A DNA stretch of 64,000 nucleotides from an uncultured Chloroflexota bacterium (GCA_913051185.1 CAJXBM010000003.1:121-64120); one strand, 5' to 3'. Shown: positions 1 through 31,860, counted from the first letter of the stretch. Translations and numbers: made by a program. Notes: a model not told the origin generated them from the sequence alone.

Positions 1-180
1 GAGCCTTGCCTGCTTCGGACTCATTTATATTGAAAAAAAAACGAGCAATAATTTCTCTATAGCACTGTTTAATTTTTGTTGAGTTATCAGCTATGACCTG
101 AATTTGGATAGGCGCAGCTGCGTCTTATGGGTGTCCTATGCTAACCTCTTTATAGGCGAGGACAGAGGGGATGCGAGTCT

Positions 181-2712: not shown

Positions 2713-2734
2713 TTGTTTTTAGAGGAAATGCTTC

Positions 2735-3613: not shown

Positions 3614-3647
3614 TTAAGCTTTAACTGGCAGAGTATGTTTATTATCT

Positions 3648-4721: not shown

Positions 4722-4766
4722 GAGTCGGATTATAAGAATAAGTATCTCCTGCTCTCTGGGTCTCGT

Positions 4767-6647: not shown

Positions 6648-6656
6648 AAAAATACT

Positions 6657-7163: not shown

Positions 7164-7165
7164 AT

Positions 7166-7978: not shown

Positions 7979-8009
7979 TGTTGTCCTCGAGTTTCAGTCG
8001 TTTTCTGTC

Positions 8010-9083: not shown

Positions 9084-9170
9084 AGGTTTTTATCCGAATA
9101 TTAGTTTTACTTTCACCGGTCTTCCAGAAAACCACTACTAGTATAGCTGTGTGGAGAAAAGCCTATTATT

Positions 9171-10304: not shown

Positions 10305-10342
10305 GGCCTACTTCAACCTCAGCATTGCTTATTTTAAATCTT

Positions 10343-12499
10343 CTATGTTGATTCTTCCATTCTAATGGAATTAATTATGCCATCGAAGGTGCTTTCGTCT
10401 ATTACTCTTACGTTTTGTTTTATTGCATCTTGTCTCTTTTTTCCTCCCCCTTCTCCCGCGAGCAAAATAGTGGTGTTTTTTGAGACGGAGGTGACCACCT
10501 CTCCGCCCTGCTGCCGAATTAGGTTTTGAATTTCAGGTCTCTTCCAGCGAGTTAGTGTCCCCGTTATTGCAATTTTATGACCTTGAAGGGCATCTCCAAA
10601 TGCTATTTGATTTTCTTCAACATTTACGTTCAGGCTGACTAGTTTGTCCATAAGAATTTGATTGTATGGTTCACGGACCCACTCATAGATGCTAGTCGCG
10701 ACAATTTCACCTATTCCCGTTATGTCGAGGATGTCTTCATAATTAGCTAAACGAAGGTTTGTCAGAGTTCTGTATCGTTCAGCGATTAACTTAGCCGTAG
10801 TTTCACCAAGGTGTCTAATGCCAAGTCCAATCAGAAGGCGGTGAAGTGGCAAGGTTTTACTTTCTGTGAGGCCCACGTTTAATGTTTGAAACCATTTTTC
10901 ACGTATTCCCGGAAACTTATCCAATTGATCAATTCTTTTAAGATGCTGTACAACTCTGTCATCATTTTTTTTCCCGTACTTTCTGGCAACTTGTCTCAGT
11001 CTATCAAGCCTATTTTTGAAATTAAGAATTTGAATCCTTTTATCTTGCATAAGGTAAATGTCTGCCAAAGATTTAATGCAACCATTTCGAACTAGGAGTG
11101 AGGCGCGTTCTTCGCCAAACCCTTCGATATTGAGTGCTTGCCTGGACACGTAGTGCTCAACTTGACGCGCAAGCCGACCTTGGCAATTTACATTGGAACA
11201 ATAGTGAGCGGCTTCAGCATCTTTTTTTGTGACCGGACTCTGGCAGTCAGGGCAGACTAAAGGCATTTCAAATATCGCAGATGTTTCCGTTCTTTGAGAT
11301 AAAATGGGACCTAATATCTGAGGGATAACTTCTCCTGCGCGCTGTACGACAACTTGATCTCCGACCCTTAGATCTAAATCTTGGATGTGGTCTAAGTTAT
11401 GGAGTGTTGCTACGGATATATTTGCTCCGCCGACGAACACTGGTAGAAGTTCAGCGTATGGAGTCAATACACCTGTTCGTCCAACTGAAAGCTTTATATC
11501 TCGTAATTTCGTAGTAGCTTGTTCAGCCGCAAATTTCCATGCCGTCGCCCAGCGTGGTTCGCGACCCACTATGCCCAAACTATTCTGTGATGCGAGGTTA
11601 TTTATTTTTATGACAACTCCGTCGATATCATAATTTAGTGAGTCGCGTTCGGCCTCGAGATTTTTACAGTAATCAACAATTTGATTTGTATCAGAGACAT
11701 TCTTCATCAGAGGGTTCGTGGGGAATCCAAGGGATGCTAGCCACTCGATTGTTTTTTGATGCGAGTCGAATAAGTCATTATTCTCAGTCCAACCTAGTTG
11801 ATATATAAAAACACTCAGATTTCGCCGGGCAGTAATCTTTGGGTCTAAGTTACGAAGTGAGCCAGCAGCGGTGTTGCGCAGATTTACATAGAGAGGTGAG
11901 TTTTGCTCGGCTCGCCGTTTGTTTAGCTCATCGAATTCAAATTTGCTGATATATACTTCACCCCGAACTTCAAAGCGTTCGGGTATTGTCTTAGTGCCTA
12001 TGGGGTCTACGGTCAGAGGTAAACCTCTGATCGTTCGCAAATTATCTGTAATATCTTCGCCTTCTTGCCCGTTTCCACGAGTAGCACCACGAACAAATTT
12101 TCCCTTTTCGTAGACCAGTGAGACGGCTAGACCATCTATTTTGGGCTCAAGTATGAAGTTCGTCTCTAACTCTGGATATTGTTTCACAGCCTTATCAAGC
12201 CACAGTTGCAGTTCATCAGGTGTAAAAACATTTGATAGCGAGAGTAAGGGTTCGGGATGTAATACCGTACTAAACGAAGTGGCTACGTTTTCCGATATTC
12301 GCTGGGTAGGTGAGTCTTGGGTGAGAAATTGTGGAAACTCTTCCTCCAGTTCTCTTAGCCGGTGCATTAAGTTGTCGTACTGTGAATCACCAATCTCTGG
12401 TGAATTAAGTACATAGTATCTGTGGTCATGGTGTTGAATACTGATACGGAGATTATTTATTTCCTGCTCGATTTCAGTTTCGTTGAGCGTCTCATGCAT
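10343..12499 (-). CDS. ligA: NAD-dependent DNA ligase LigA
   Basis: 718-aa ORF with the adenylation motif KIDGLA, a C4 zinc finger (CPDCQSPV...CSNVNC), an HhH region (GLGIRHLGE) and a C-terminal BRCT domain (KIAITGTL...GGEVVTSVSKNTTILLAGE). Confidence 0.95.
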   Translation of the reverse strand: MHETLNETEIEQEINNLRISIQHHDHRYYVLNSPEIGDSQYDNLMHRLRELEEEFPQFLTQDSPTQRISENVATSFSTVLHPEPLLSLSNVFTPDELQLWLDKAVKQYPELETNFILEPKIDGLAVSLVYEKGKFVRGATRGNGQEGEDITDNLRTIRGLPLTVDPIGTKTIPERFEVRGEVYISKFEFDELNKRRAEQNSPLYVNLRNTAAGSLRNLDPKITARRNLSVFIYQLGWTENNDLFDSHQKTIEWLASLGFPTNPLMKNVSDTNQIVDYCKNLEAERDSLNYDIDGVVIKINNLASQNSLGIVGREPRWATAWKFAAEQATTKLRDIKLSVGRTGVLTPYAELLPVFVGGANISVATLHNLDHIQDLDLRVGDQVVVQRAGEVIPQILGPILSQRTETSAIFEMPLVCPDCQSPVTKKDAEAAHYCSNVNCQGRLARQVEHYVSRQALNIEGFGEERASLLVRNGCIKSLADIYLMQDKRIQILNFKNRLDRLRQVARKYGKKNDDRVVQHLKRIDQLDKFPGIREKWFQTLNVGLTESKTLPLHRLLIGLGIRHLGETTAKLIAERYRTLTNLRLANYEDILDITGIGEIVATSIYEWVREPYNQILMDKLVSLNVNVEENQIAFGDALQGHKIAITGTLTRWKRPEIQNLIRQQGGEVVTSVSKNTTILLAGEGGGKKRQDAIKQNVRVIDESTFDGIINSIRMEEST

Positions 12500-12621
12500 A
12501 ACTAATAGGATAAGCTAGAGCGTTCAATCACGTCTGCTAATTTATATTTACAAACTCTCGTGAATATTTAGTTGTAAACTAGGTTCTACGCTAATTATTT
12601 TCTACGAGGCCGATTTAAGAT

Positions 12622-13236
12622 ATGAATGATGTTGTGATAGTTGACTATGGTGCAGGAAATCTGCTTAGCGTCGAGCGCGCTGTGAAATTTGCCGGCGGGA
12701 ATCCAGTTGTAACCTCAGATCCAACAGTAGTTTCTGATGCCCCTGGCTTAGTCATGCCGGGTGTTGGAGCTGCCGCAGACACTATGAGGAATTTACGTGA
12801 ACGTGGTTTAGATCAAGTTATTGCTGAGTTTATAGAATCTGAGCGCCCATTTCTTGGAGTATGTATGGGAATGCAGGCACTATTCGAAATATCTCGTGAG
12901 GGTGGAGAACATGAATGCCTAGGCGTGCTTGGTGGAGAGATAGTGCGTTTTCCGGAAGAGGCGGTTGTGCCTCATATGGGCTGGAATGTAGTTAATCAGG
13001 TGTCAGAACATCCCATTATGGCTGGGATCGAGGCCGGTTTTCACTTTTATTTTGTTCACTCTTATTTTGCGAGACCAACCGAATCCGCTTGTGTTATTGC
13101 AGAGGCAACTTATGCTGGAGTCAAATTTCCTGCTGTTGTGGGGACTCGTAATTTAATGGCTACGCAATTTCATCCTGAAAAAAGCGGACCTGCAGGCCTC
13201 CGTCTTTATAAAAATTTCATTGAGTTATTAAGCTAG
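12622..13236 (+). CDS. hisH: Imidazole glycerol phosphate synthase, glutamine amidotransferase subunit HisH
   Basis: 204 aa. Class I amidotransferase with nucleophile motif GVCMGMQ and HPEKS. It is the first gene of a hisH-A-F-I run. Confidence 0.9.
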   Translation: MNDVVIVDYGAGNLLSVERAVKFAGGNPVVTSDPTVVSDAPGLVMPGVGAAADTMRNLRERGLDQVIAEFIESERPFLGVCMGMQALFEISREGGEHECLGVLGGEIVRFPEEAVVPHMGWNVVNQVSEHPIMAGIEAGFHFYFVHSYFARPTESACVIAEATYAGVKFPAVVGTRNLMATQFHPEKSGPAGLRLYKNFIELLS

Positions 13237-13286
13237 ATGCAGAGCGTACTGATTTCTATATTTATTGCACGACAAGGAGTAAAACT

Positions 13287-14000
13287 ATGGATGTAATGCC
13301 CGCAGTTGATATACGGGATGGTAATGCCGTACGTCTTGTACGAGGCGATTACGACAAAGAAACTGTCTTTGGGTCTCCAAAGGATTTTGCTGAAGAATGG
13401 GTTAGACAAGGTTCAAGTCATTTGCATTTAGTTGACCTTGACGGTGCCAAAGCCGGGTACCCAGTCAATCTAGACTTGGTTCAGGAAATTATTAATCATT
13501 GTGGAGTAGAGATTCAGCTCGGTGGTGGTTTGCGATCGCTAGAGTCAATTCAAGCGGTGATTGCTCTAGGAGTTAATCGATTTATAGTTGGTACATCTGC
13601 GATTTCTGATTCAGAGCTATTAGAACAGCTTGCGGAGGAGTATGCAGCAGAACTCATTGTTTCAGTCGATATACGTGGAGATTTTGTAGCCGTCTCAGGA
13701 TGGTTGGAGGATAGTTCAATTCGAGCCACAGATTTCTTTGTAGAGTTGGAGAAGGTTGGTGTGAAAAGAATTATCTATACCGACATTGAAAGAGATGGGG
13801 TTGCAATGGGCCCAAATCTTGAGATGTGTGAGTATATTACTGGTCAAACGAATCTTTCGCTTATTGTCGCAGGCGGAGTTTCCAGCATCTCTGATATCGC
13901 AGAATTAAAATCGATTGGAGCTGAGGGCGTCATCATTGGTAGAGCCTTGTACACCGGTGACGTTAATTTATCCGATGCGCTCGAAGTGGCTGAGGGATAA
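13287..14000 (+). CDS. hisA: ProFAR isomerase HisA
   Basis: 237 aa. HisA/HisF (beta/alpha)8 family with N-terminus MPAVDIRDGNAVRLVRGDY. It sits between hisH and hisF. Confidence 0.9.
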   Translation: MDVMPAVDIRDGNAVRLVRGDYDKETVFGSPKDFAEEWVRQGSSHLHLVDLDGAKAGYPVNLDLVQEIINHCGVEIQLGGGLRSLESIQAVIALGVNRFIVGTSAISDSELLEQLAEEYAAELIVSVDIRGDFVAVSGWLEDSSIRATDFFVELEKVGVKRIIYTDIERDGVAMGPNLEMCEYITGQTNLSLIVAGGVSSISDIAELKSIGAEGVIIGRALYTGDVNLSDALEVAEG

Positions 14001-14008
14001 TAATTTAG

Positions 14009-14791
14009 ATGTTGACTAGGCGAATTATTCCGTGTTTCGATGTCGATAATGGAAGAGTTGTTAAAGGAGTGTCCTTTGTAAACCTCCGTGACGCAGGAGA
14101 TCCGGTCGAACTTGCATCACAATATGAGCGAGATGGAGCCGACGAGCTAGTCTTCCTTGATATAACTGCCTCTTCAGACGACAGGACAAGTACTTTTGAA
14201 CTGATACAAAGAACTGCGGAACAAATATTTATTCCCCTGACTGTGGGTGGGGGAGTTCGATCTCCAGAGGATGTGAGAAGAATGCTGGAGTCGGGCGCGG
14301 ATAAAGTTTCTCTAAACACAGCAGCTGTCGAGAATCCTGACCTGATTGAGAAATCAGCAAAGGGATTTGGATCACAGTGTACGGTAGTAGCCCTAGACGC
14401 AAAATCAACTGGAGATAATCGATGGGAAATTTTTACACACGGTGGTCGTACTAGGACGGAGAAAGATGTGATTGAATGGGCCATCGAAGTTACTGAGCGA
14501 GGTGCGGGGGAGCTTTTAGTGACATCAATGGATAGTGACGGGCACAAGGAGGGGTACGATATTCCTTTACTCAGAGCTATCAGAGATAAGGTGCGCGTTC
14601 CAATAATTGCGTCGGGTGGTGCAGGCGGACCGGAGCATTTTTTACAGGCATTAACTGCGGGAGAAGCAGACGCCGTGCTTGCTGCATCAATTTTTCATTT
14701 TGGAGAGCATTCGATTAAATCAGTGAAAGAATATCTGAGTGCTCATGGAATAGCTATACGGCCTGTGATTAGCGCCGATCAGAAACTTTAG
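14009..14791 (+). CDS. hisF: Imidazole glycerol phosphate synthase cyclase subunit HisF
   Basis: 260 aa. Carries [27 protein letters not shown] and further HisF-typical motifs. Confidence 0.92.
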
Positions 14792-14792
14792 A

Positions 14793-15170
14793 ATGTGTGA
14801 GAAGGAGATTAATATGACTAGCTTCGATCCCAGTGAATTAACATACGACGAGAGAGGCCTGATCCCCGCTATTTTGCAACTTGAAGATAATGGGACAGTC
14901 ATCATGCTCGGGTATATGAACCAAGCAACGATGAAAAAAACCATTGAGATTGGACAGGCCGTCTTTTGGTCAAGGTCTCGACAAGAAGTTTGGCACAAAG
15001 GTGCAACATCAGGTGATTTCGTTAACGTCCATTCGATCACAACCGACTGTGATCGTGATGTAGTTATTTTGAAGGTTTCACTCGTTGAGAATGGAATTTG
15101 TCATACCGGCGCATCTTCATGCTTCATTACTGAATCCGGCCAAGATCAGATCGTTGAATTAAAGGCTTAA
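14793..15170 (+). CDS. hisI: Phosphoribosyl-AMP cyclohydrolase HisI (no HisE half)
   Basis: 125 aa. Starts 1 nt after the hisF stop. Motifs SRSRQEVWHKGATSGDF, DCDRDVVILKV and CHTGASSCF. Confidence 0.88.
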   Translation: MCEKEINMTSFDPSELTYDERGLIPAILQLEDNGTVIMLGYMNQATMKKTIEIGQAVFWSRSRQEVWHKGATSGDFVNVHSITTDCDRDVVILKVSLVENGICHTGASSCFITESGQDQIVELKA

Positions 15171-15474
15171 TTAAGAGTTTTGCCTAGTGGTATTTTGAAC
15201 TATTCGCACCAGTCCCATTTATCAGTCATTACAAGGCTTTGTTAGCGACGTAGGATGACAGGTCCTAACCCTAAACTTCCTTGGATTTCGAACAAATCAG
15301 AGCGCTCGCCAACTCAAGTCCAGAAAATGATGCAACCTAAGTGGGGCTTGAAAACCCGAGAACTTATTAGATAGTCCGATTTTCAGATTTAGCAAGTTCT
15401 GGAATCTTCATGGTACTCCTGTGCCAAGCTCCATCAACCCGCTACACTGCCGATGTACCGAGAGGAGAGATGTT

Positions 15475-20759: not shown

Positions 20760-23174
20760 ATGCGAGTTTTAGAGATAAGTAACTCCGAGGGCGCTGCGGC
20801 ATTCGCTGGTAAATTATTTCATCGCTGGGGTGCCGAAGTCATTCGAATTGAGTCACATGAAAGAGTAAAGGCTACTCTCCACGGAGATATCTATGTGAAC
20901 GGTGGAAAATCTCGAATAGCGATAGATTTTGCAAACTCGCAAAATCTTGAGGAGCTTAGCACTATTGCAGAGACCAGTGACATCATCCTATCTGATCTGT
21001 CCCCGAGAGAAATTGATGATTTTGGTTTATCTGGAATAGGTGGAGATCGGACACGAGCAAGAATTTTCATCACGCCATTTGGGCGCAGCGGTCCTTATAA
21101 AGATTTCAAGGCGACCTCAGCGACCTTAAATGCACTCGGGGGATCTACATGGCTCTCGGGAGATCCAGAACGCGAGCCTTTGACACTTCCGGGTCAGTAT
21201 TGCTATTACCAGGCAGGCAGTCTTGCATATGTACATGCAATGTCACAGTGGTTGTATGCGAGTAATCTCATCACGGTCGACATATCAGTCCTAGAGACTC
21301 TTGTTTCATTGCATCAATTCACCGACGTGATGTGGATTTTTGAAAAAATAGTTAGAACGAGGCATGGCAATCGATTTCAGACACTCTGTCCTACCACGTT
21401 ACTTCCTGCAAGTGATGGTTGGGTTGGAATGAATATCTTGCCCAATTTTTGGGCGCCTTTTGCTTTATGGATTGGTGGATCAGACTTAGCCGATCGCGAG
21501 GATATTTTTCTTAATTCCGACAGAATGGCTCGAGAGGATGAAATTGAGGACCTGATTCGAGAATTTTTGCGTGATAAAAAGGTACGGGATATTTTGAAAG
21601 ATGGGCAGGAGACATGGCGAGTTCCGATTGGAATAACCGTACCGTTAGACCAAATTTTTGATGATATGCAATTGGTTTCACGAGGATATTTCAAAGAAAT
21701 TAAGGGTGACACACGTGGCTTATTGACACCGGGATCACCTTATACGATTTCTGGTGTGATACCGAGACCCGAGTTACTGCCCGATCCTTCGGGCGCTATA
21801 CAGATTCAGGACCTAAAGACGAATTCTGCAGATCTACCTCAGTCGGGGAGTAATTCAACCGATCGGCCGTTAGATGGATTGAAGATTGCAGATATGACTC
21901 GTATCTGGTCAGGACCGCTTTGCTCGAGGTTGTTGGGGGATCTTGGTGCTGACGTACTGAAAATCGAGGCGCCGATGGGACGGGGTCCCAGCTCGGCTCC
22001 TGCAATGTTTAGTGGCCTTAAAGAGGGGGAAAGTTTTGAGCAACTTTGGAATCGACATGGTTTGAATAACAAACTGAATAGGAATAAACGATCTGTTTCT
22101 CTTGATTTAAAGTCTGAAGCAGGTCGGGAGATATTCTTAAAAATTGTCGCCGAAAGCGATGTCCTCATTGAAAACTTCAGCGTTAGAGCCATGCCGTCGC
22201 TAGGTTTGGATTATGAAACGTTACACCAAGTGAATCCAAGATTGATATACATCGCGATGCCAGCCCTAGGCCGTGAAGGACCTTACAAGGACTATGTAGG
22301 ATTGGGTCCTAGTATTGAACCTCTCTCGGGTTTACCGGAAATAATGGGATATAGCCATGAGGAACCACGAGTGACCTCTCAGGCTATAACAGATGCGGCA
22401 GCCGGAATAACTGCGGCAACTTCTGTTCTCGCAGCCTTGAAGCATAGAAGGGATACGGGCGAAGGGAGTCTTGTTGATCTTTCTCAATCAGAGGCGATGG
22501 GTTGCTATATTGGAGAGTTTTATTTGCAAACTCAAATCGAAGGTTCTCCTCCTGGTCAACATGGGAACGATAATTTGGATTTCGCGTTTCAGGGTGTGTT
22601 TAAGTGTCAAGCGCTGCAGACAAATAAATTTAATAGTCAAAAGGCATCGTCAGAGCGACTTTCGGATCAACCAACCACGAGTAATCGTGATGATGAATGG
22701 ATCGCGATTTCATGTCAGACAGAGGATGAGTGGTTGATTTTTGCAGAGTTTGCGGGTGAGTCATGGCAATTAGATCCATTATTTTCTGACGTAGTAACAC
22801 GTCGGGTGAATAGGCAAATTCTGGTCGAAAGAATAAACGAGTGGACCGGTAAGTATGACAAGAATGAACTGATGATGCTTCTGCAAGATGCTGGTGTTCC
22901 AGCGGGGGCAGTTTTGTCGGCACCAGAATACCTTCAAGATCCACATCTAGTGGAAGAGGAGTATTTCTCGTATACGGAGTGGTCGACTGGAGAGAAACCT
23001 CAAAGTGATGGTTTACCCGTTAAATATGATGGCACACGGAGATATTCCTGGTGGTCTGGACCTCCCGCTTTGGGAGGTGCCAATGAGGAGGTGCTTGAAA
23101 AGCTAGGATATTCGGAACGTGAGATATCGGAGTTATATGCTCAAGGAGTAATTGTTAATCGACCACCGGAGTAA
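20760..23174 (+). CDS. Tandem (two-domain) family III CoA-transferase (CaiB/BaiF-type) fusion
   Basis: 804 aa, roughly twice the usual 400 aa. The C-terminal half has classic motifs (LDGLKIADMTRIWSGP, NRNKRSVSLDLKS, ITDAAAGITAATSVLAAL). The N-terminal half is a diverged copy (MRVLEISNSEGAAAFAGKLF, GGKSRIAIDFAN). Confidence 0.8.
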   Translation: MRVLEISNSEGAAAFAGKLFHRWGAEVIRIESHERVKATLHGDIYVNGGKSRIAIDFANSQNLEELSTIAETSDIILSDLSPREIDDFGLSGIGGDRTRARIFITPFGRSGPYKDFKATSATLNALGGSTWLSGDPEREPLTLPGQYCYYQAGSLAYVHAMSQWLYASNLITVDISVLETLVSLHQFTDVMWIFEKIVRTRHGNRFQTLCPTTLLPASDGWVGMNILPNFWAPFALWIGGSDLADREDIFLNSDRMAREDEIEDLIREFLRDKKVRDILKDGQETWRVPIGITVPLDQIFDDMQLVSRGYFKEIKGDTRGLLTPGSPYTISGVIPRPELLPDPSGAIQIQDLKTNSADLPQSGSNSTDRPLDGLKIADMTRIWSGPLCSRLLGDLGADVLKIEAPMGRGPSSAPAMFSGLKEGESFEQLWNRHGLNNKLNRNKRSVSLDLKSEAGREIFLKIVAESDVLIENFSVRAMPSLGLDYETLHQVNPRLIYIAMPALGREGPYKDYVGLGPSIEPLSGLPEIMGYSHEEPRVTSQAITDAAAGITAATSVLAALKHRRDTGEGSLVDLSQSEAMGCYIGEFYLQTQIEGSPPGQHGNDNLDFAFQGVFKCQALQTNKFNSQKASSERLSDQPTTSNRDDEWIAISCQTEDEWLIFAEFAGESWQLDPLFSDVVTRRVNRQILVERINEWTGKYDKNELMMLLQDAGVPAGAVLSAPEYLQDPHLVEEEYFSYTEWSTGEKPQSDGLPVKYDGTRRYSWWSGPPALGGANEEVLEKLGYSEREISELYAQGVIVNRPPE

Positions 23175-23260: not shown

Positions 23261-24235
23261 ATGGAACCTGATCTTTCGGATTTGAGTTTATCTATTGCCT
23301 CTTGGGATCCTGCATATGGATCTGCTGTAGACTTTCGCGAATTAGACCAATCGGATCAACAAATTATTGATGACTCAGTCGAGATGAACTCTCTCGATTG
23401 GAAGCCTTTGTATGGTGATATAGCAGCCGCGCCACAGAACATATTATTTGTGGATGGTATTCAACGTGTTGAGGCGAGGCTTGAAATCTATCCGGCGAAT
23501 TTTGTGGTACCGCAATCGGCGTTATGGGCCGCTATCGGTGCCGGAGCAGTCCGTTGGAATCGAAAAGAGCATGCGTCAGAATTTATGAATCTCACTCATA
23601 GACGGGTAGTTATCCTTCCAAAAGGTATCGATATTAGCCATATTGACCGCTTAAGAAAGGCAGACATCCATTTTGATATTTGTCACGCTGGGGGCAGTGA
23701 ATTTTCTGATCTTCAAAACGAAGTACACGTGCAAATGGCGCGACTGGAATATGAAATTGTTCGCGCGATAGCTGATTTTTCGAGCAACGTGGTGATAGCT
23801 GACGGTCGGGTTAGACCTAAGCATCCGCCAGGCACGTTGGGTTACGTGAAAAGCCATGAACGGAGCTATCTGAGTGGGAGACCGGCCGAGACTGTTCCAA
23901 ATTTAGATATTGAGCAACGGACTCCTTTATTTCTGATTGATGGACAATATCCTCGTTATTCTTGGTATATCAGAGTTGGATATGTACCTAGGGGGAATAA
24001 GTGGCAAGGCATTGCGCGACTCGAAGTATCAGCGGAAATTGATGCGAAGCGAGCAGCAGAACTTGCTAATATTTCAGCGATCGCCATCCCGATTGCAGCG
24101 CCGCCACTCTATATGGATCCACGTGCACCACAAAATCTAGTACCCATAGCAGCGTTGGAGAGAGAGCTAAGGAGAGGTCTAGGCAATCCAGAATTATTGA
24201 ATAGAAAACTTAAGGTTGCATTGCATGAAGCGTGA
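23261..24235 (+). CDS. nurA: NurA-like nuclease (partner of HerA)
   Basis: 324 aa. NurA-like motif series by eye: LFVDGIQRVE, VVIADGRV, GYVKSHERSY and a C-terminal PQNLVPIAALERELRR. The stop is 9 nt before the HerA-type ATPase start. The call leans on that gene pairing. Confidence 0.55.
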   Translation: MEPDLSDLSLSIASWDPAYGSAVDFRELDQSDQQIIDDSVEMNSLDWKPLYGDIAAAPQNILFVDGIQRVEARLEIYPANFVVPQSALWAAIGAGAVRWNRKEHASEFMNLTHRRVVILPKGIDISHIDRLRKADIHFDICHAGGSEFSDLQNEVHVQMARLEYEIVRAIADFSSNVVIADGRVRPKHPPGTLGYVKSHERSYLSGRPAETVPNLDIEQRTPLFLIDGQYPRYSWYIRVGYVPRGNKWQGIARLEVSAEIDAKRAAELANISAIAIPIAAPPLYMDPRAPQNLVPIAALERELRRGLGNPELLNRKLKVALHEA

Positions 24236-24244
24236 GGTGATTTC

Positions 24245-26101
24245 ATGAATCAAAGGTCAGAAGCACTAGAGCGTGTTGGACGAATCGTAGGAGATGCTCG
24301 GACTAATACCCGAGAATTCAGGATAATTCTGGATGACACTTCATATCTCGCGGTGGATGATTTAGTTGTCGTAATTTCGAACATCCCGGGCTTAACTGAG
24401 CCACTTGGAACTTATGGAGTGGTGATTGAGAGCGAGTCGACTTATGAAGGCGTCACTTATGAGACAGATGTACGTCGAATTGCGGATTCAGGAGTATTGC
24501 CTGCAGAATTGATTCGAACTGCAACAGTCGCGATCACAAGAATGATTCCTGAAATCTGGACTGCCCCACTGGCCGGACAGATAGTCCATCGTGCAACAGG
24601 AGTGGAGCGAGATTTAGCCTTGTATGTGGATGATATGGGAAGAAAAATGCCTGTTGGCTTAGCTCCAGATGGGTCTCCTATATTTTTAGACCTTGACTTC
24701 TTCGATGGTACGAAGGGGGGGCACATGTCGATTAGTGGCGTGTCAGGTGTCGCAACCAAGACCACCTATGCTTTCTTTTTCATCCGGATGCTGACCGGTG
24801 CTAGGCACCTGAGAGAGAGCACTGAAAATTATGATGTGGTTGGTGACTCACTCCACAACACGCGAGTTCTCGTATTCAACGTAAAGGGACAGGATTTATT
24901 GTGGTTGGATACACACAATGCAGACTTCACAAATATCGATGAGGAGGGGTGGACCACTTTGGGAATTGCACCAACTCCTTTTCAATTGGTGACCCGAGAC
25001 GTTTCGATATCGGATTTGCAACCAGGAATTCCTACAGTCTCATTTTGGTCACCACCTCAGGAAGGTGCTCCCGACGATCTCGTACTTCCGCAAGCCGATC
25101 GAACTGGTGTATCCCCATTTTATTGGACACCACGTGAATTCATTGACTCGGGTTTGTTGTCATATGTCTTTACGGATGCTTCGGATTCTCGCAATCAGCT
25201 TCAGTTCTTACTAGAGCGGATTCAATCGCAGCTGCAACGTTGGGCTGTTGATTTAGTCGATGCGACCGGTGCCGTTGTACTACGGCACCCTAGCGAGCAA
25301 GAGTTTGCCGAAGGAAGGCGAGTTGCCGTTGCACCTCGATCAGGCGAGATTACGGTCAATTCACTTGAGACTCTTAAGGACGCTATTAGATACTTCATTG
25401 ATCCTGATGAGATTGAGCCTCATCCCGATTGGGTAGGTAGTATTGAGCGCGGCACGATATTAGCTTTCATAAGGAGACTAGAGGCGGCTTCTCGAATCAA
25501 CCGGCTTGGTCAATTAGTTCGAGCTGGTGCCAAGATGAGCGTGGATAGAGACCTCGCAACGGTTACGGTGGTCGATATTCATTCATTGCATGAGCTTGCT
25601 CAGCGATTTGTAGTTGGAGCTCTACTGAAGGAAACGTTTGAAGAGAAAGAGGAAACAGGCTCGCGAACACCACTCTCAGTTGTGGTATTAGACGAGATGA
25701 ATAAATATGCACCAATACAGGGTGACAGTCCAATTAAGGACATGTTGATTGATATCGCTCAGCGGGGACGCTCTTTGGGTGTGTTATTGATTGGAGCTCA
25801 GCAGAGCGCATCCAGGGTTGCTCCGGATGTTTTGGAGAATGCGTCTATTAGAATTACAGGCCGGCTCGATTCTGCAGAATCTGAGCGTAGCCAATATGGT
25901 TGGATGCTTCCTTCTACGCGCGCGCGCGCCAAACTTTTGAAACCAGGCACGATGGTACTTGGACAACCTGCAGTTCCATTACCAGTTGTACTTAAATTCC
26001 CTCGGACTCCCTGGGCGACTAGGGCAGAAGAGCGGTTAATATCTCCAAGCGAGGACTTATTTTCAGGATTAGATTCATCACTGTCTGAGGACATCGAGTA
26101 G
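24245..26101 (+). CDS. herA: HerA-type (FtsK/HerA superfamily) hexameric ATPase/translocase
   Basis: 618 aa. HAS-barrel-like N-terminus (VGRIVGDARTNTREFRIILDD...VDDLVVV), P-loop-like ISGVSGVATKTT, Walker B LSVVVLDEMNKY, then IAQRGRSLGVLLIGAQQSASRV. GAGGTGA Shine-Dalgarno upstream. Confidence 0.8.
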   Translation: MNQRSEALERVGRIVGDARTNTREFRIILDDTSYLAVDDLVVVISNIPGLTEPLGTYGVVIESESTYEGVTYETDVRRIADSGVLPAELIRTATVAITRMIPEIWTAPLAGQIVHRATGVERDLALYVDDMGRKMPVGLAPDGSPIFLDLDFFDGTKGGHMSISGVSGVATKTTYAFFFIRMLTGARHLRESTENYDVVGDSLHNTRVLVFNVKGQDLLWLDTHNADFTNIDEEGWTTLGIAPTPFQLVTRDVSISDLQPGIPTVSFWSPPQEGAPDDLVLPQADRTGVSPFYWTPREFIDSGLLSYVFTDASDSRNQLQFLLERIQSQLQRWAVDLVDATGAVVLRHPSEQEFAEGRRVAVAPRSGEITVNSLETLKDAIRYFIDPDEIEPHPDWVGSIERGTILAFIRRLEAASRINRLGQLVRAGAKMSVDRDLATVTVVDIHSLHELAQRFVVGALLKETFEEKEETGSRTPLSVVVLDEMNKYAPIQGDSPIKDMLIDIAQRGRSLGVLLIGAQQSASRVAPDVLENASIRITGRLDSAESERSQYGWMLPSTRARAKLLKPGTMVLGQPAVPLPVVLKFPRTPWATRAEERLISPSEDLFSGLDSSLSEDIE

Positions 26102-26110
26102 TGACGCTTT

Positions 26111-27886
26111 TTAGTCTAGGCTCTGAGGCGGACCGCCTTCACTCGGCTCCAAATATATATCTATATCATCCAAGAATGCTTCGATCGGATCTTCATTCTT
26201 AGCTAGATCCCCGTTGCCTTGCACTTTGATATCCATCGACTCTGCGTATCTTTTATAGAGTTCTAAGGAGTCGCCATATTTTTGATGACCAGCAGTATGT
26301 CGCGCACTAGCCATCAACAATTCACCGCCGAAGCTTGAAGTCGTGCGCGTATAATCTTCCAACATGCAAAGACCGATTTCTTGATTATGGGGGTCGTTGC
26401 CTTGCTTAACCGCGCCCATCGCCAGAATTTTTACCAGTGACTCACGTTCGTATCCGGCAGCAAGATAAGCCTCAACGTAGGCCACGCTTGCGTCCTGATC
26501 TAAGGCCATCATAGATTCATCAATTTTTTTAAGCATTTGTCGAGGAGACAGTTGGTCAGTTCCGTCCGGAGCTTGAAACGAGCGAGCCTGGAGCGTTTTG
26601 CTAAACCGAGATGTATGATGAGTTTTGTAATTATAGTCAGGCATATCACGAATTAAGCGAGCACATTGATTTACGAAATTAGCGGCGATATAAAGTAATT
26701 TCGTTTTATGTGGATGTTCAAATGTTCTAAAAAACCATGCGAGCGTGTTCGTATATTCGTACCCATGCTGTGGCATGCTGTAGGCGGGCGGGTCTGCTAT
26801 CGCTAAGATGACTCGTGCCGAGGCGATTTGGATAGCATCCAAGATTGCCGAAGGTGAGCGGCCAGCTTTAAGTAGCATGGTGATCGCCTCAAAATAGGCA
26901 GCCTCCTCTTCACGAAGAACCATTCGAATAAGCGATTCTTCTTCTATTTCCGTCAAGGGTTGCGTCTGCCGAAAATATGCCTGATCGGTATCAGTTGCTT
27001 CGGTTGCTGCTAGTGAGGATGTAGGCGCTTCCTCTTCTAGCTGATTTATCATTATCTGGCAGGCGGCCTCGTAAGCAGAGTACCATCTGGGTCCAACAGC
27101 TAAATCCGGTACCGTTGCGTAGATTACATGGTGAGCATTATCCCAGCCTATTCTGTTTCCTAACTCCACAGCAGCTCGTGCTCGGAAGCTTTTATGACCA
27201 GTCGTGAATGATCTGTTGTACATCATTCGATCCTGAACATCTATTAATCCAGCAAATACTGTATTTGCTAAGAGGTTTTTTCGGTTACCTGTATCTTCCC
27301 AAAGACCTAGCCATTGGCGATAAGACCCTGAGACATCTCCCCGTTCAACTAACTGTAGCCAGTCACTCACCCCATTATCGAAAGTCCCATCGATTAGATT
27401 GGGTTGTTCATCTTTCCAATGAACCTCTGGGTTCAGAGGGCCCTCGGGGTATTTCGATGCGTCATAGACGCGCCGTGAATAATGACCGGGCATACGACCT
27501 TTTAGCTGATTCCAGATGTCTAGACCTGTGGGCACATACCAGATCGTTTGGGCAAGGGGAAGAAATTCAAATTGTTTTGGCATGTAATTTTCTAGACGAA
27601 GCGTTGCCCCACCTGATAGTAAGCAGTGATCGTTGTTCACAAATCTGACGATACCTTGATCGATTTTTTGATGATACGGAACGTGGGTAAATGGTGCATG
27701 TGTCCGAACTGTCTCTGACAGTATTTCTACTTTAGATCGACCTTGCTTTAGCAGTTCATACATAGTGTTGGTTGCGGAGATCTGATCACGATCAATAATA
27801 TTCTCACGAAGCTGCTCGTAAGATCGTCGAGCATTTTTGTCATTAATATCATTTGAGATGGGTTCAAGTTCTGCGGGAGCAACCAT
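26111..27886 (-). CDS. Hypothetical protein, no recognisable family (His-rich, internally repeated helical protein)
   Basis: Uninterrupted 591-aa ORF with an ATG start and AAGGA 8 nt upstream. I recognise no motif. The confidence value refers to it being a real CDS, not to any function. Confidence 0.8.
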   Translation of the reverse strand: MVAPAELEPISNDINDKNARRSYEQLRENIIDRDQISATNTMYELLKQGRSKVEILSETVRTHAPFTHVPYHQKIDQGIVRFVNNDHCLLSGGATLRLENYMPKQFEFLPLAQTIWYVPTGLDIWNQLKGRMPGHYSRRVYDASKYPEGPLNPEVHWKDEQPNLIDGTFDNGVSDWLQLVERGDVSGSYRQWLGLWEDTGNRKNLLANTVFAGLIDVQDRMMYNRSFTTGHKSFRARAAVELGNRIGWDNAHHVIYATVPDLAVGPRWYSAYEAACQIMINQLEEEAPTSSLAATEATDTDQAYFRQTQPLTEIEEESLIRMVLREEEAAYFEAITMLLKAGRSPSAILDAIQIASARVILAIADPPAYSMPQHGYEYTNTLAWFFRTFEHPHKTKLLYIAANFVNQCARLIRDMPDYNYKTHHTSRFSKTLQARSFQAPDGTDQLSPRQMLKKIDESMMALDQDASVAYVEAYLAAGYERESLVKILAMGAVKQGNDPHNQEIGLCMLEDYTRTTSSFGGELLMASARHTAGHQKYGDSLELYKRYAESMDIKVQGNGDLAKNEDPIEAFLDDIDIYLEPSEGGPPQSLD

Positions 27887-27915
27887 TTTGTTAATCCTTG
27901 CTTAGTTCAGGGCAT

Positions 27916-27942
27916 ACTTGTTACTGGGTTATGTTAACAAGT
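27916..27942. promoter_or_regulatory. Operator-like inverted repeat ACTTGTTA-N11-TAACAAGT in the divergent orphan/sbcD control region
   Basis: Perfect 8-bp arms at 27916-27923 and 27935-27942 inside the 148-bp region between the divergent starts at 27886 (-) and 28035 (+). Confidence 0.35.
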
Positions 27943-28034
27943 TTTTTATAAAATTTGAAGGCTTTACAAAGTGAATTTCGGCTCCAGAGCGAGTGATTAA
28001 CCAGATTATACTTTTTGAGATAGAGTGATAGGTA

Positions 28035-29285
28035 ATGAAGATTCTGCACACGTCCGACTGGCATATAGGTAAGAAACTCGGAGCGTTTGATCGTACATCA
28101 GAATTCCGTTCAGCCATCAACGAACTTGATGATATTTGTACAGATCAGAGCATTGATGCCGTACTAATATCGGGAGACATTTGGGATAAAGGGACGCCGA
28201 CACCTGGTCTGTTGGATATAGGCATAGACGCGATGAGGCAACTTTCGGGCGACGGGAATCGAGCCATCATAGTAATCGCCGGTAATCATGATTCGGCACC
28301 GTTTTTCGATGTAATGAGTAAGATATTAAAACCGTTCAATATTCATTTCGTCGGATATGTGAAACCACCGGCTGATGGCGGAATAGTTCGAATTGAAAGT
28401 GCAGGTGGAAAACTTGCGGTGGGGTGTATTCCGTTTTTACGAAAAGGCCATGTTGTGGACTTAATGGGAGATTTGTCGAAATCATATGGGGCTTATCAGG
28501 AAACCTTAAAGAATATATTTGAGACCTTTGCACGGGAACTTTCGAAAGACCAAGCTGATGGTGCGGTAACTATGCTGATGTCCCATGCCACAGTTAATGG
28601 CGCGTCAATCGGCGGAGGTGAGTGGAGTTTACATACCGGGCAAGATTATGCAATTGAAGCAGCTTCGTTTCCCTCGAGTGTGCAGTACGTTGCAATGGGA
28701 CATATACACAAGCCACAGAAAATAGCTGGAAGCTCCGTGCCGGCCGAATATGCAGGGACACTTCTCCCTTTGGACTTCGGTGAGCGTAACGATGAAAAGC
28801 GAGTTGTAATTGTAGAAGCAGTCTCCGGAGCGCCTGCTCGAATAGAGAGTATTCCGCTAAAAGTGGCACAAAGACGACCTCTTCGCCGACTGACTGGAAA
28901 CTTAGATACGATTTTGCATGAGTACGAGGAGGAGCTGGAAGCTCTAGGTCATAAATATCCTGATCTGGATGCAGAGAGTGGTCCATATTTCGATATAGTC
29001 GTAGAAACAGATGGGCCAGATACTAGCTTGAGTGACAAGATTCATCAGGAGCTCGGCAGTGTGGTAAAGATTCAAGCAAAATACCAATCCGAGATCGTAG
29101 CGTCGGTTTCGAAATTGGATCAGTCAGACGAAGAGTCATATAAGGATTATTATCGTCTCGAGCATGGCGTTGAGGCTAATGCCGGTTTGTTAGATGGATT
29201 CCGTCAAGTTGCAGAAACTGCCAGTTTGCAACGTCAGGAAGAATTGCTCGAGGCAGAAATCGAGAGCGCTGATGCGGCCAATTGA
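28035..29285 (+). CDS. sbcD: SbcD/Mre11-family DNA repair nuclease
   Basis: 416 aa. All calcineurin-like phosphoesterase motifs occur in order: HTSDWHIG, ISGDIWD, AGNHD, MSHATV, GHIHKPQ. Confidence 0.9.
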   Translation: MKILHTSDWHIGKKLGAFDRTSEFRSAINELDDICTDQSIDAVLISGDIWDKGTPTPGLLDIGIDAMRQLSGDGNRAIIVIAGNHDSAPFFDVMSKILKPFNIHFVGYVKPPADGGIVRIESAGGKLAVGCIPFLRKGHVVDLMGDLSKSYGAYQETLKNIFETFARELSKDQADGAVTMLMSHATVNGASIGGGEWSLHTGQDYAIEAASFPSSVQYVAMGHIHKPQKIAGSSVPAEYAGTLLPLDFGERNDEKRVVIVEAVSGAPARIESIPLKVAQRRPLRRLTGNLDTILHEYEEELEALGHKYPDLDAESGPYFDIVVETDGPDTSLSDKIHQELGSVVKIQAKYQSEIVASVSKLDQSDEESYKDYYRLEHGVEANAGLLDGFRQVAETASLQRQEELLEAEIESADAAN

Positions 29286-31860
29286 ATTAACTATTCAAGG
29301 TTTTCGTTCGTTTAAAGAATCTACAAAAATTGATTTCAGAGGACGCAATCTCGTTGGTATTCTTGGACCTATTGGGTCCGGTAAATCTACGCTACTCGAT
29401 GCGATTTGCTTTGCGCTCTATGGGAAAACACCGACCATAGGTCAGGGTACACGAGAACTTGTCAATCAGAGATCTGATCCGAATCAAGCATCGATCGAGC
29501 TGGTGTTTCGATCTCAAGACAGTAATGGCAATCTTCGGGGATGGTTGGCACAGAGAATTATTCGGACGAGTGGTGGCGGCGGACAAGTTGGACTTTATGA
29601 ATATGATTTAGTTCTCTCTCAGCGCGGCCGATTGGTAGTCGATAAAGCTCGTGAGATGAATGAGCGAATTGAGACAATTTTGGGAATTGATTTTGATGGC
29701 TTTTCAAGGTCAATTCTACTTGCTCAGGGTCGTTTTGCAGAATTTTTGAACGCTCGGCCTTCTGAACGCGATGTCGTATTGAAGGGTGTTTTTGGTTTAC
29801 AGCGAATTGATGAAATGCGTGAAGAAGCAGGTACTCGATTGAACACTTCGAGGTCCCGAGTCGAGACGCTCGAAAGGACACTCGATCAAACGGTGTTGGC
29901 TAGAGGACAATTCGATGAGTTGGAAACCGAACGAGCTGAGTTAGAACAAATCGCAATAGAACTGGATGAAGTTTTAGAGAAGATTAAACCACTTACTCAA
30001 GTAGCTAACTTTAAGAGAGAGAGACATACGTCGATTGAGGAGCAGATTCAGAGACTTGAAGAAATAAGGGATTCATTACCGGCAGCAACTGAAACTGAGA
30101 TTTTGTTCGATCATATGGATGCCTCCACATCGAAGCGGGCGACAATTGGTGTTCAAAAAAAGCAGGCGGAAAGTGGTGTGTTGAAAGCTGAGGAACAACT
30201 GGCGAGCGCACAGCGAGAAATTGGAGGTCAGGAAAAAGTCCTAGCTCGCCAGAAATTGATTGAACAGGTCAAAGTTGTAAAACAATCCTTTGAGCAGTCT
30301 GATCAATCTTTGAAAGAGAAAGGTGTCACCTACCACACCATTACGTCTGACGTTAGTGACGCTGAACAGAAATATCGCGACTCTGAAAGACAAGTTAGTG
30401 AAATCGTGGAGCATATACGCACAATTGAAAAACAACTATTAGGTGCTAAAGAAAGACTTAATGAGGCTGAAAGACACGACAGAGCTGGTGCACTTCTTAG
30501 TGAACTTAAGATTGGAGATCCTTGTCCCGTTTGTGGTAATGCAATTACAAATATCGTTAGAGCAGACGACGGAAGTGAACTCACGCTCGCAAGTCAACAA
30601 CAGAGCGATTTGGAAGGAGAACTTGCAGTAGCTAGGGATACGCAGCAGCAGATGACTAGCAGTCATGCCGTTAAGTTTGCCGCACTTGAACAAGCAAATA
30701 AGATAGAAGAGACCAGTCGTGTCGAGATTGCAAATGCGCACAATCTGTTAGAACAATTACGAATAGAACTTGAAACTTCCTTGATTGCTGCTCAGCTAGA
30801 TTTTGAAGGTTCTCCGTCTCTTGAGGACATGGTAGGTATTGTTGACGGACAGCAGAATCAACTTGATCAATCTCAACTCTATTTGAATTCAGCCAACCAG
30901 ACTCTGGCAACAGCACTTGGTGCGCTAACCGCGCAGCTGCAAGACGATGAAGCAACAAACCGAAAGCTCATTATCTTATCCAATAGGCTTTCTTCGGCCG
31001 CAGCCCAGATGGGTCTAGACGTAATGTCAGAGGATGATTTCTCGACTAGTCAGAAGTTAAGACTTTTCAGAGATCGTGTTCGTGAGGAATGGAAGACGAA
31101 GGACGCGAGTTTACGCAAAGAGCTTGTATCTGTTAGTTCGGAAATTGTTGTAATTGATGATCAAATTATGGACGTAATGTCATCGGTATCTGGGTACGCA
31201 GGGAATCCCTCTAGAGAAGAATTCGAAGCTTTTTTTCAGTCAACTAAGGAGAAAATATCAAATCTTAGTGGGCAGTTGACACTTCTACAAAAGCAGATCG
31301 ATTCAGAGACTGAAGTGATTCAAAACATAGATCTGGCCAAAAGGGAGATGAATGTATTTGAGACCCTTCGGCGCGATCTTACGGATTCACGATTCGTACG
31401 ATTTTTACTGGAAGCTGAACGCAGTGAACTTGCACGCGAGGCTTCAGATAAATATGCATCGATGTCCAGCGACCGCTATCGATTTACAAATGACGGCGAC
31501 TTCAATATTTTAGATTTTTCTCATGGAGGACAGGAAAGGAGCGCACGTACCCTTTCTGGCGGGGAAACTTTCTTGGCGTCACTTTCTCTCGCGCTAGGCT
31601 TATCGGAGATGATCTCTCGCAAAGGTGGACGCCTTGATTCTTTTTTCCTGGATGAAGGATTCGGCTCATTGGATGAAGAGCATATTGAGTTGGCAATGGT
31701 TGGAATTGAACAGTTAGTTAACGAAAATTCGGACAGATTGGTACTCTTGGTATCACATGTTCCGGCACTACGGGAACGATTAGAGGATGTAATTGAGCTC
31801 GCACGTGACCCGGAAGATGGGCACACGCGTTTGGTAGCGGGCGGGACACGAACTGCCTGA
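29272..31860 (+). CDS. sbcC: SbcC/Rad50-family SMC-like ATPase
   Basis: I place the start at ATG 29272 (MRPIELTIQGFRSF...), overlapping the sbcD stop by 14 nt. Walker A GPIGSGKST, Q-loop LAQGRF, long coiled coil with zinc hook CPVC (30523-30534), signature LSGGETFLASLSLALGL, Walker B FFLDEGFGSLD, H-loop LVSHV. Confidence 0.9.
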   Translation: MRPIELTIQGFRSFKESTKIDFRGRNLVGILGPIGSGKSTLLDAICFALYGKTPTIGQGTRELVNQRSDPNQASIELVFRSQDSNGNLRGWLAQRIIRTSGGGGQVGLYEYDLVLSQRGRLVVDKAREMNERIETILGIDFDGFSRSILLAQGRFAEFLNARPSERDVVLKGVFGLQRIDEMREEAGTRLNTSRSRVETLERTLDQTVLARGQFDELETERAELEQIAIELDEVLEKIKPLTQVANFKRERHTSIEEQIQRLEEIRDSLPAATETEILFDHMDASTSKRATIGVQKKQAESGVLKAEEQLASAQREIGGQEKVLARQKLIEQVKVVKQSFEQSDQSLKEKGVTYHTITSDVSDAEQKYRDSERQVSEIVEHIRTIEKQLLGAKERLNEAERHDRAGALLSELKIGDPCPVCGNAITNIVRADDGSELTLASQQQSDLEGELAVARDTQQQMTSSHAVKFAALEQANKIEETSRVEIANAHNLLEQLRIELETSLIAAQLDFEGSPSLEDMVGIVDGQQNQLDQSQLYLNSANQTLATALGALTAQLQDDEATNRKLIILSNRLSSAAAQMGLDVMSEDDFSTSQKLRLFRDRVREEWKTKDASLRKELVSVSSEIVVIDDQIMDVMSSVSGYAGNPSREEFEAFFQSTKEKISNLSGQLTLLQKQIDSETEVIQNIDLAKREMNVFETLRRDLTDSRFVRFLLEAERSELAREASDKYASMSSDRYRFTNDGDFNILDFSHGGQERSARTLSGGETFLASLSLALGLSEMISRKGGRLDSFFLDEGFGSLDEEHIELAMVGIEQLVNENSDRLVLLVSHVPALRERLEDVIELARDPEDGHTRLVAGGTRTA

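Follow-up and report, generated by a model that had tools for sequence, protein, structure and literature searches.

Here, we describe a locus in a 64,000-nucleotide (nt) stretch of DNA from an uncultured Chloroflexota bacterium (GCA_913051185.1, CAJXBM010000003.1:121-64120), the whole of which is called the window throughout. The locus carries the genes of a HerA-NurA pair and of an SbcD-SbcC pair, and between them is an opposite-strand gene encoding a 591-amino acid (aa) protein, named here X591 (Table 1). All five open reading frames (ORFs) were present in our ORF map at the coordinates given by a first-pass annotation of this DNA, whose gaps and overlap were matched as well. Specifically, nurA and herA are separated by 9 nt, the convergent stops of herA and X591 lie 9 nt apart, and sbcD and sbcC overlap by 14 nt, with the sbcC start at position 29272 being the supported one because SbcC profiles align from residue 1. 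The gene order is nurA-herA-(X591)-sbcD-sbcC, with nurA coming first, unlike in the archaeal order, and the four named genes are not contiguous in the window, being interrupted by the 1.8-kilobase (kb) gene on the opposite strand. GC content varies between 0.445 and 0.481 over the locus, matching the rest of the window, while the 148-nt region between X591 and sbcD has 34% GC. As argued below, we consider it likely that the locus is a chromosomal module for processing the ends of DNA double-strand breaks (DSBs), a bacterial counterpart of the archaeal herA-mre11-rad50-nurA operon, in which X591 is an unrelated passenger.

Table 1. Coordinates of the genes and other features discussed, in the window and in related loci.
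Feature	Sequence	Position	Strand	Length	Assignment or remark
nurA	Window	23261-24235	+	324 aa	Predicted bacterial-type NurA nuclease, RNase H-like 5'-3' exo/endonuclease partner of HerA
herA	Window	24245-26101	+	618 aa	Predicted Deinococcus-type HerA/FtsK-superfamily hexameric double-stranded DNA (dsDNA) translocase with N-terminal HAS-barrel
X591	Window	26111-27886	-	591 aa	Widespread family of conserved hypothetical proteins; outside the resection module
Intergenic region	Window	27887-28034		148 nt	AT-rich, divergent; probable sbcDC (and X591) promoter region created by insertion
sbcD	Window	28035-29285	+	416 aa	Bacterial-type Mre11-family nuclease subunit
sbcC	Window	29272-31860	+	862 aa	Bacterial-type Rad50-family ABC ATPase with CPVC zinc hook and short coiled coil
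herA-sbcD-sbcC-nurA	Nonomuraea gerenzanensis NZ_LT559118.1 (L089)	6794-13492			Archaeal gene order
herA-sbcD-sbcC-nurA	Streptomyces sp. BB1-1-1 linear plasmid (L091)	6893-14462			Archaeal gene order
X591 homologs	P0121-P0240				Protein set
X591 homolog	L081	8001-9719			
X591 homolog	L082	8001-10340			
X591 homolog	L084	3584-5347			
sbcD as two ORFs	L083 (ERZ27247722 k141_358567)	2-1138		153 aa and 200 aa	Metallophos in the 153-aa ORF
herA-sbcD interval	L056	3103-7413		~4.3 kb	Includes an opposite-strand ABC-transporter-like gene
Genes beside cassette	L091	1-6328			Wadjet-type genes, ImmA/IrrE metallopeptidase
Genes beside cassette	L093 (Chlorohelix)	1-6661 and 13731-15209			ImmA/IrrE, TIR-domain protein, transposases
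LigA	Window	10343-12499	-		NAD-dependent DNA ligase, full domain set
Family III CoA-transferase	Window	20760-23174	+	804 aa	Double-length, directly 5' of nurA
CoA-transferase	L005	15893-17035			Directly 3' of sbcC
Actinomycete ORF	L017	15567-18686	+	~1040 aa	Directly 3' of sbcC

Searches against the protein data bank (PDB) bore out the naming of the first gene pair. With phmmer, window HerA aligned with Deinococcus radiodurans HerA (drHerA; PDB ID: 7F6D_B) at E=5e-109 (residues 4-596 versus 8-600), and this end-to-end alignment includes the N-terminal HAS-barrel, the RecA-like domain, and the inserted helix bundle, such that the HerA ATPase with a HAS-barrel-like N-terminus proposed at first pass holds over the full length. 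A HerA family profile gave 3e-145 with the HerA of the same structure. Likewise, NurA matched the NurA chain (7F6D_H) at E=6e-15 as a single sequence and at 2.7e-47 with a profile of 18 orthologs, while the ortholog profile matched Thermotoga TM1739 (PDB ID: 1ZUP) at 2e-20, all in keeping with the earlier NurA-like call. By homology to 7F6D, window HerA would form a hexamer that binds a NurA dimer (6:2). Here, we noticed that the HerA residues of Walker A (K172/T173, equivalent to K175/T176 in drHerA), the acidic β2 position (D217, equivalent to D220), and Walker B (D483/E484, equivalent to D487/E488) are invariant in 14 diverse homologs. Moreover, NurA residues D65, K197, and R288 align with D53, K201, and R309 of D. 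radiodurans NurA (drNurA), with a consistent 20-residue tag offset for all three, and these are the drNurA residues that were mutated in an earlier study (PMC9960219). Among 70 NurA orthologs, D65, E163, D181, K197, and R288 are conserved in 100% and H199 in 97%.

Family models behaved differently. Window HerA had zero Pfam matches, including to the HerA/DUF87 models, and scored 18 bits against a cutoff of 970 with the NCBIfam model NF040819 (helicase_HerA). The Pfam NurA model (PF09376) did not match the window protein and matched 9 of the 18 orthologs (best E=6.2e-07). No archaeal HerA or NurA structure was matched, even with profiles of the bacterial orthologs. The first-pass annotation had made its naming of this pair depend on profile hits; Pfam gave none for either protein, and the PDB sequence and profile matches decided the matter in its favor. 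Because the 7F6D matches are decisive and half of the NurA orthologs do hit PF09376, we attribute the Pfam blank to insensitivity of the models to the bacterial clade, and the NF040819 and Pfam HerA models in fact rest on archaeal-type sequences. Since the Pfam NurA and HerA models and the NCBIfam HerA model all miss this clade, the annotation gap is a systematic one. Public records name such NurA and HerA proteins 'hypothetical protein' or 'ATP-binding protein', both in the window and in three of the distant loci (L090, L091, and L092).

The second gene pair was readily identified. SbcD matched Pfam Metallophos at 1.8e-13 over the whole profile (positions 1-191 of 191) and NCBIfam TIGR00619 at 4.6e-45 (154 bits versus a cutoff of 77.65), and its phosphoesterase motifs I-V are complete (D8/H10, D48, N84/H85, H184, and H223/H225), as the first-pass annotation had held. 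Its best PDB matches were E. coli SbcD (1e-25), T. maritima Mre11 (4e-22), and P. furiosus Mre11 (9e-15). For SbcC, the Pfam models AAA_23, SMC_N, and SbcC_Walker_B all exceeded their cutoffs, and TIGR00618 gave 5.7e-69 at 233 bits, which is under its cutoff of 478.5. At 862 aa, the protein is close to the median of its linked orthologs (845 aa), with E. coli SbcC being 1048 aa. The ABC head is complete, comprising Walker A (GPIGSGKST, 32-40), Q-loop (LLAQGRF, 149-155), signature (LSGGE, 761-765), Walker B (FFLDEGF, 791-797), and H-loop (VSHV, 827-830), and the predicted CPVC zinc hook is found at 418-421. The best PDB matches were E. coli SbcC (1e-35) and T. maritima Rad50 (4e-23), followed by archaeal Rad50. 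With E. coli SbcCD as the nearest relative, Thermotoga Mre11/Rad50 second, and the archaeal proteins third, both are of bacterial type and were not acquired within an archaeal operon.

To place this arrangement among other genomes, we fetched 80 loci around HerA relatives from species-representative genomes and searched them with the window proteins. HerA relatives were found in at least 563 species-level genomes (3,186 protein clusters at E<=1e-10), and the 80 loci cover Dehalococcoidia, other Chloroflexota, Acidimicrobiia, Actinomycetes, Thermoleophilia, and Gemmatimonadaceae. The gene for SbcD lies 3' of herA on the same strand in 71/71 loci having at least 1.5 kb of downstream sequence, sbcC follows in 64/64 loci having at least 4.5 kb, and nurA lies 5' of herA in 70/70 loci having at least 1.2 kb upstream. 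In 66 of the 71, sbcD begins within 150 nt of herA, such that co-directional contiguity (a herA-sbcD gap of no more than 150 nt) is the usual state. Distant copies with 28-39% HerA identity, found by way of a plasmid collection, have all four genes in 5/5 loci. Here, Sphaerospermopsis, Aulosira, and Chlorohelix share the order nurA-herA-sbcD-sbcC, whereas Nonomuraea gerenzanensis and Streptomyces sp. BB1-1-1 have the archaeal order (herA-sbcD-sbcC-nurA), being the only copies examined that do. The Nonomuraea record (11.8 Mb) is labelled a plasmid and evidently is a chromosome; the Sphaerospermopsis cassette (L090) is carried by a conjugative cyanobacterial plasmid. That the linkage survives permutation of gene order down to 28% identity is strong evidence for functional coupling of the four genes. 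Accordingly, the neighborhood check that had been proposed for the two pairs came out in favor of their linkage, and with it the idea of a bacterial counterpart to the archaeal resection gene set is supported. No universal additional partner was found among the clustered flank ORFs of the 80 loci. The commonest flank neighbors were aconitase, glucose/sorbosone dehydrogenase, and CoA-transferase, and any other family of flanking genes is shared by about 17 of the 80 loci at most; these counts are lower bounds, as spurious antisense ORFs interfered to some extent with ORF calling in GC-rich genomes.

As for previously described systems, the closest in layout is the nurA-hepA(herA)-sbcD-sbcC cluster of Oceanithermus profundus, which matches the window in its four genes and their order and was read by Blesa et al. 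(2017) as an archaeal-like DSB repair architecture with secondary recruitment of SbcCD (PMC5448004). The kind of locus is therefore already known, and the window is a further example of it. However, that was a single-genus report, whereas we find the linkage to hold as a rule in Chloroflexota, Actinomycetota, Gemmatimonadaceae, and Cyanobacteria, and the window copy differs in being interrupted by an inserted gene. In the accessible literature, we found no recognition that the linkage is a multi-phylum rule, and bacterial linkage may have been mentioned before. The first-pass remark that bacterial HerA-NurA pairs are normally discussed separately from SbcCD is a fair one, albeit the Oceanithermus arrangement had been published. 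With the archaeal operon of Sulfolobus and Pyrococcus, the window shares the same four families in one locus and the same proposed division of labor, i.e., end recognition and clipping by Mre11/Rad50 and long-range 5' resection by HerA-NurA. In contrast, window SbcD and SbcC are nearest to E. coli SbcCD, and window HerA and NurA are too diverged for matches to archaeal structures; contacts between NurA and HerA are reportedly ionic in the bacterial complex and hydrophobic in the archaeal one (PMC9960219). The NurA-HerA pair of Deinococcus (DR_0836/DR_0837; PDB IDs: 7F6D, 7WRW, and 7WRX) is alike in its full-length HerA homology, Walker A and B motifs, and TR-motif arginine, in its bacterial-type NurA with the D53/K201/R309 equivalents, and in having nurA immediately upstream of herA. 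Yet, the pair in Deinococcus and Thermus is not adjacent to sbcCD, as it is in the window and in at least 71 other species. A 2023 structure paper described bacterial NurA-HerA as being 'only in a few bacteria' (PMC9960219), a statement that the cluster and genome counts given above contradict.

The nearest homologs of window HerA are proteins from Dehalococcoidia metagenome-assembled genomes (MAGs) at 99, 92, and 75% identity, followed by those of Chloroflexota, Acidimicrobiia, and Actinomycetota at 55-60%. The 92% relative is MAG GCA_029247135.1, and the 75% relatives were recovered from marine metagenomes, those of TARA among them; the window belongs to a marine Dehalococcoidia clade. We observed that the window is perfectly syntenic with the 92% and 75% relatives in a run that begins at the his genes and continues through an enoyl-CoA hydratase, an aminotransferase, a carboxyltransferase, a CoA-transferase, and the five genes of the locus to two ABC exporters. 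The window also has core genes for a ClpB-like ATPase, PBP2, an NAD-dependent ligase, ArgRS, and argininosuccinate lyase, and no tRNA or Rfam elements were found in it. The locus is part of the core chromosome and vertically inherited, and is not an island.

X591 itself gave no match in Pfam, NCBIfam, PADLOC, or PDB sequence searches. In this respect, the earlier description of it as an orphan that could not be annotated is half right: family matches are indeed absent, but orphan status is contradicted by more than 1,800 scored homologs, all of them named 'hypothetical' and with over 50% identity across Chloroflexota, Rokubacteria, and Tectomicrobia. By tblastn, X591 is present in one of the 80 HerA loci (L001, a 75% relative) and absent from the other 79, and it adjoins herA only in the clade of the window, at 75-99% HerA identity (L001, L083, L085, and L086-88). 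Recurrence of the five-gene arrangement, which had been suggested as a check, is thus confined to this narrow clade. As Dehalococcoidia with about 60% HerA identity (L002-L004) keep herA and sbcD 15-17 nt apart without X591, the gene was inserted within the one clade; around the insertion, neither meaningful repeats (direct or inverted) nor signs of a mobile element were found. Homologs with 54, 51, and 66% identity have as neighbors alcohol dehydrogenases, transporters, an MBL-domain fusion, methyltransferase and thiamine pyrophosphate (TPP) enzymes, and CoA-metabolism genes, and none of herA, nurA, or sbcCD was found near X591 homologs at 51-66% identity. In 25 family members, the sole Pfam find was one Lactamase_B domain fusion. 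The AlphaFold2 model of X591 has a predicted TM-score (pTM) of 0.87 and suggests an all-α fold, for which Foldseek returned no match among PDB folds at E<=0.001; a likeness to the MgsA/RarA C-terminal helical domain (about 90-115 residues), being at E>1, is not interpretable and was set aside. Moreover, the family has at least 20 invariant His, Asp, Asn, and Glu residues, from which we judge X591 to be probably an uncharacterized metal-dependent enzyme, and these residues together with its conservation regardless of context suggest that it is an autonomous one. With respect to resection, X591 is a passenger, an unrelated recent insertion and no subunit.

This insertion splits an ancestral operon into nurA-herA and sbcD-sbcC units. 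The operon also tolerates interruption in other lineages, as insertions occur in four further loci: in one (L056), herA and sbcD lie about 4.3 kb apart, two (L036 and L040) have a nurA-herA gap of about 0.8-0.9 kb, and one (L005) has a herA-sbcD gap of about 0.5 kb. In the window, the 148-nt region between X591 and sbcD is the probable, candidate promoter region of sbcDC. Three relatives, when aligned, share an AT-rich block there as well as a -10-like box, which reads TATAAT in L086. A consensus scan for promoters (sigma-70) and terminators gave nothing above shuffle expectation and no hit within these 148 nt. When compared with the 92% relative, the ratios of nonsynonymous to synonymous substitution rates (dN/dS) are 0.14 for nurA, 0.05 for herA, 0.03 for X591, 0.06 for sbcD, and 0.13 for sbcC, with 0.03-0.09 for the flanking genes; all five genes are under purifying selection, like their flanks. 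All four resection genes are adjacent and intact in every relative examined, save for one possibly mis-assembled contig of the 92% relative (L083) on which sbcD appears as two ORFs. Decay as an explanation for this split was rejected, sbcD being whole in L085 and L086-88, which leaves a frameshift within a single population or faulty assembly as the explanation.

More conspicuously, HerA itself has diverged in this clade. In drHerA, two pore-facing arginines, R495 and R552, are needed for dsDNA translocation, and the R495A substitution abolished 5' resection and attenuated DNA-dependent ATPase activity, while K363, the R495 equivalent in Sulfolobus HerA, is essential for translocation (PMC9960219). 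The TR-motif arginine is conserved in the window (R548, equivalent to drHerA R552), but the position of R495 is taken by Ile491 (codon at about 25715-25717). We found Ile here in the window and its 92-99% relatives (five close relatives) and Ala in one 75% relative, with Arg in 111/111 other HerA homologs, such that the loss is confined to the clade of the window and coincides phylogenetically with the operon-splitting insertion. Other clade-specific changes are E216Q (beside the catalytic acid), R432S, E550Q, R563K, and a 9-aa insertion at 188-196, which drHerA lacks. Among near-invariant columns (for HerA, those at least 97% conserved in 114 homologs), the clade is altered in 16 of 263 for HerA, 2 of 50 for NurA, 3 of 38 for SbcD, and 0 of 22 for SbcC. 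In fact, clade HerA forms a long branch, having 60% identity to all others, whose mutual median is 76%. There are also clade-specific basic residues (R77, R190, R382, R402, R417, and R597), one of which may compensate for the missing pore arginine.

Our preferred reading, that the locus is a chromosomal DSB end-processing module, builds on the observed homology, intact catalytic motifs, purifying selection, and near-obligate linkage across phyla. Its enzymology may be carried over from E. coli SbcCD (PDB ID: 6S6V and related structures) and D. radiodurans NurA-HerA. By this analogy, SbcCD, as an ATP-gated clamp linked by its zinc hook, would recognize ends, hairpins, and blocked ends and cut them to clean termini, and the HerA hexamer, capped by the NurA dimer, would load on the cleaned end and pump duplex through its channel into NurA. 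NurA would then separate the strands and degrade the 5' strand, leaving a 3' tail for RecA. Synteny and archaeal biochemistry together point to a physical and functional hand-off between SbcCD and HerA-NurA in bacteria. With the operon split, the sbcD-sbcC unit would probably be driven from the new intergenic region. Several points weigh against this module reading. In Deinococcus, the link of SbcCD to NurA-HerA 'remained to be uncovered' (PMC4663267), deletion of nurA-herA raised resistance to UV and mitomycin C (MMC), and the authors doubt that the pair is an efficient resection complex in vivo (PMC9960219). In the window, co-expression is no longer guaranteed because the operon is physically split, and HerA translocase activity may be altered, given Ile at the R495 position and the other near-invariant changes, which beyond that position and E216Q extend to 14 further columns. 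Finally, distant copies of the cassette on plasmids lie beside defence-type genes: Wadjet-type genes (TIGR02680/TIGR02678/DUF2397) and an ImmA/IrrE metallopeptidase in Streptomyces, and ImmA/IrrE, a TIR-domain protein, and transposases in Chlorohelix.

Some of these points can be read in other ways. The operon split, the loss only in this clade of an arginine whose substitution abolishes resection, the further clade-specific changes (E216Q, R432S, E550Q, R563K, and the 9-aa insertion), and the long HerA branch could mean that HerA-NurA in this clade is uncoupled from SbcCD and has been repurposed or attenuated, with HerA maybe serving as a weak or non-translocating ATPase scaffold that regulates NurA. 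We regard this as unlikely, as HerA has a low dN/dS and intact Walker A, Walker B, D217, and R548, the invariant residues of NurA, SbcD, and SbcC are almost all kept, the four genes remain adjacent and intact in relatives bar the one doubtful contig, and a clade-specific basic residue may compensate. Alternatively, X591 might be a new accessory subunit or regulator, turning the pairs into a five-component machine in this lineage, as the first-pass annotation had suggested with its fifth component. It is retained between herA and sbcD across 75-99% HerA identity, is the most conserved of the five (81% versus 75, 59, and 42% identity; lowest dN/dS), and has the insignificant local likeness to MgsA/RarA, and its insertion coincides with accelerated HerA evolution. 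But a subunit on the opposite strand that is missing from nearly all HerA loci, whose homologs sit in unrelated metabolic neighborhoods away from herA, nurA, and sbcCD, and whose conservation irrespective of context suggests an autonomous enzyme, is very improbable, and the MgsA-like match at E>1 does not alter this. As to the third alternative, in which the module chiefly targets foreign linear DNA (phage or plasmid) with repair being secondary, parallels exist in the degradative mode of RecBCD and in HerA defence systems, and such a role was speculated for archaeal HerA-NurA (PMC3326311). The distant plasmid-borne cassettes beside Wadjet-type, ImmA/IrrE, TIR, and transposase genes, along with weak PADLOC matches to MADS components and LmuB, would fit with it. 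However, no PADLOC defence-system model matched as a system; the individual hits (mad3, mad8, LmuB, DndD, and PbeC) reflect generic ABC/SMC-head or P-loop similarity, and were not taken as membership. Window HerA reached E=0.03 only with the PADLOC defence HerA models, and NurA had no match at all. SIR2-HerA and DUF4297-HerA do share a HerA/FtsK ATPase with the window, whose C-terminal ATPase core weakly matches the HerA of 8XAU (E=0.008), but the similarity is confined to a P-loop core of about 120 residues, neither a SIR2 nor a DUF4297 effector was found beside herA, and the window partners are NurA and SbcCD on a core chromosome. Moreover, the HerA family is very rare on plasmids (6 among 72,556 records, including one true chromosome) and in phages (one distant match), the flanks elsewhere are aconitase, dehydrogenases, and CoA-transferases, and the window locus sits among ClpB, PBP2, LigA, ArgRS, and his genes with synteny down to 75% HerA identity. 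Being core, vertically inherited, and syntenic, and of a family so rare on mobile replicons, the window locus is quite unlikely to serve in defence, and the self-contained island or foreign-DNA module envisaged at first pass is at odds with its flank-like composition, its synteny, its core genes, and the want of a defence-system match. A subset of the plasmid-borne modules may nonetheless be mobile or associated with defence or damage response.

For the DSB end-processing module, so strict a synteny argues strongly, at the genomic level, for cooperation of SbcCD with HerA-NurA in bacteria, a link that was left open for Deinococcus (PMC4663267). The machinery is widespread (at least 563 species genomes and over 3,000 protein clusters) yet under-annotated, and candidate tractable hosts for studying a four-protein hand-off are Streptomyces, Nonomuraea, Oceanithermus, and the cyanobacterial plasmids. 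The window is otherwise clarifying; all that sets it apart is that its HerA has naturally lost a pore arginine found by experiment to be essential, and it is this loss together with the breadth of linkage that makes the broader interest. Taken further, it is conceivable, though we hold it as doubtful, that both of the following apply: the four-gene module, near-obligately linked in at least five bacterial phyla and in both orders, is maybe the main DSB-resection machine of Acidimicrobiia, other Actinomycetota, and Chloroflexota, and the lack of the pore arginine in HerA of the window clade implies another mode of gripping or loading DNA, or a non-translocating role, that arose with the operon split.

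Beyond the module, a few neighboring genes were noted. LigA, about 11 kb upstream of the cluster, is the sole other DNA-repair or replication gene found among the large ORFs of the window. In 12 actinomycete loci (e.g., L017), a lineage-specific neighbor of about 1040 aa lies directly 3' of sbcC; it has no Pfam match, and shows weak coiled-coil/SMC and histidine-kinase-like similarity in NCBIfam. The double-length family III CoA-transferase next to nurA in the window has counterparts directly 3' of sbcC in several Acidimicrobiia loci (L005, L010, L011, L014, L020, L025, and L066), a recurrence that is probably coincidence in CoA-transferase-rich genomes, as the identity is just 24-35%.

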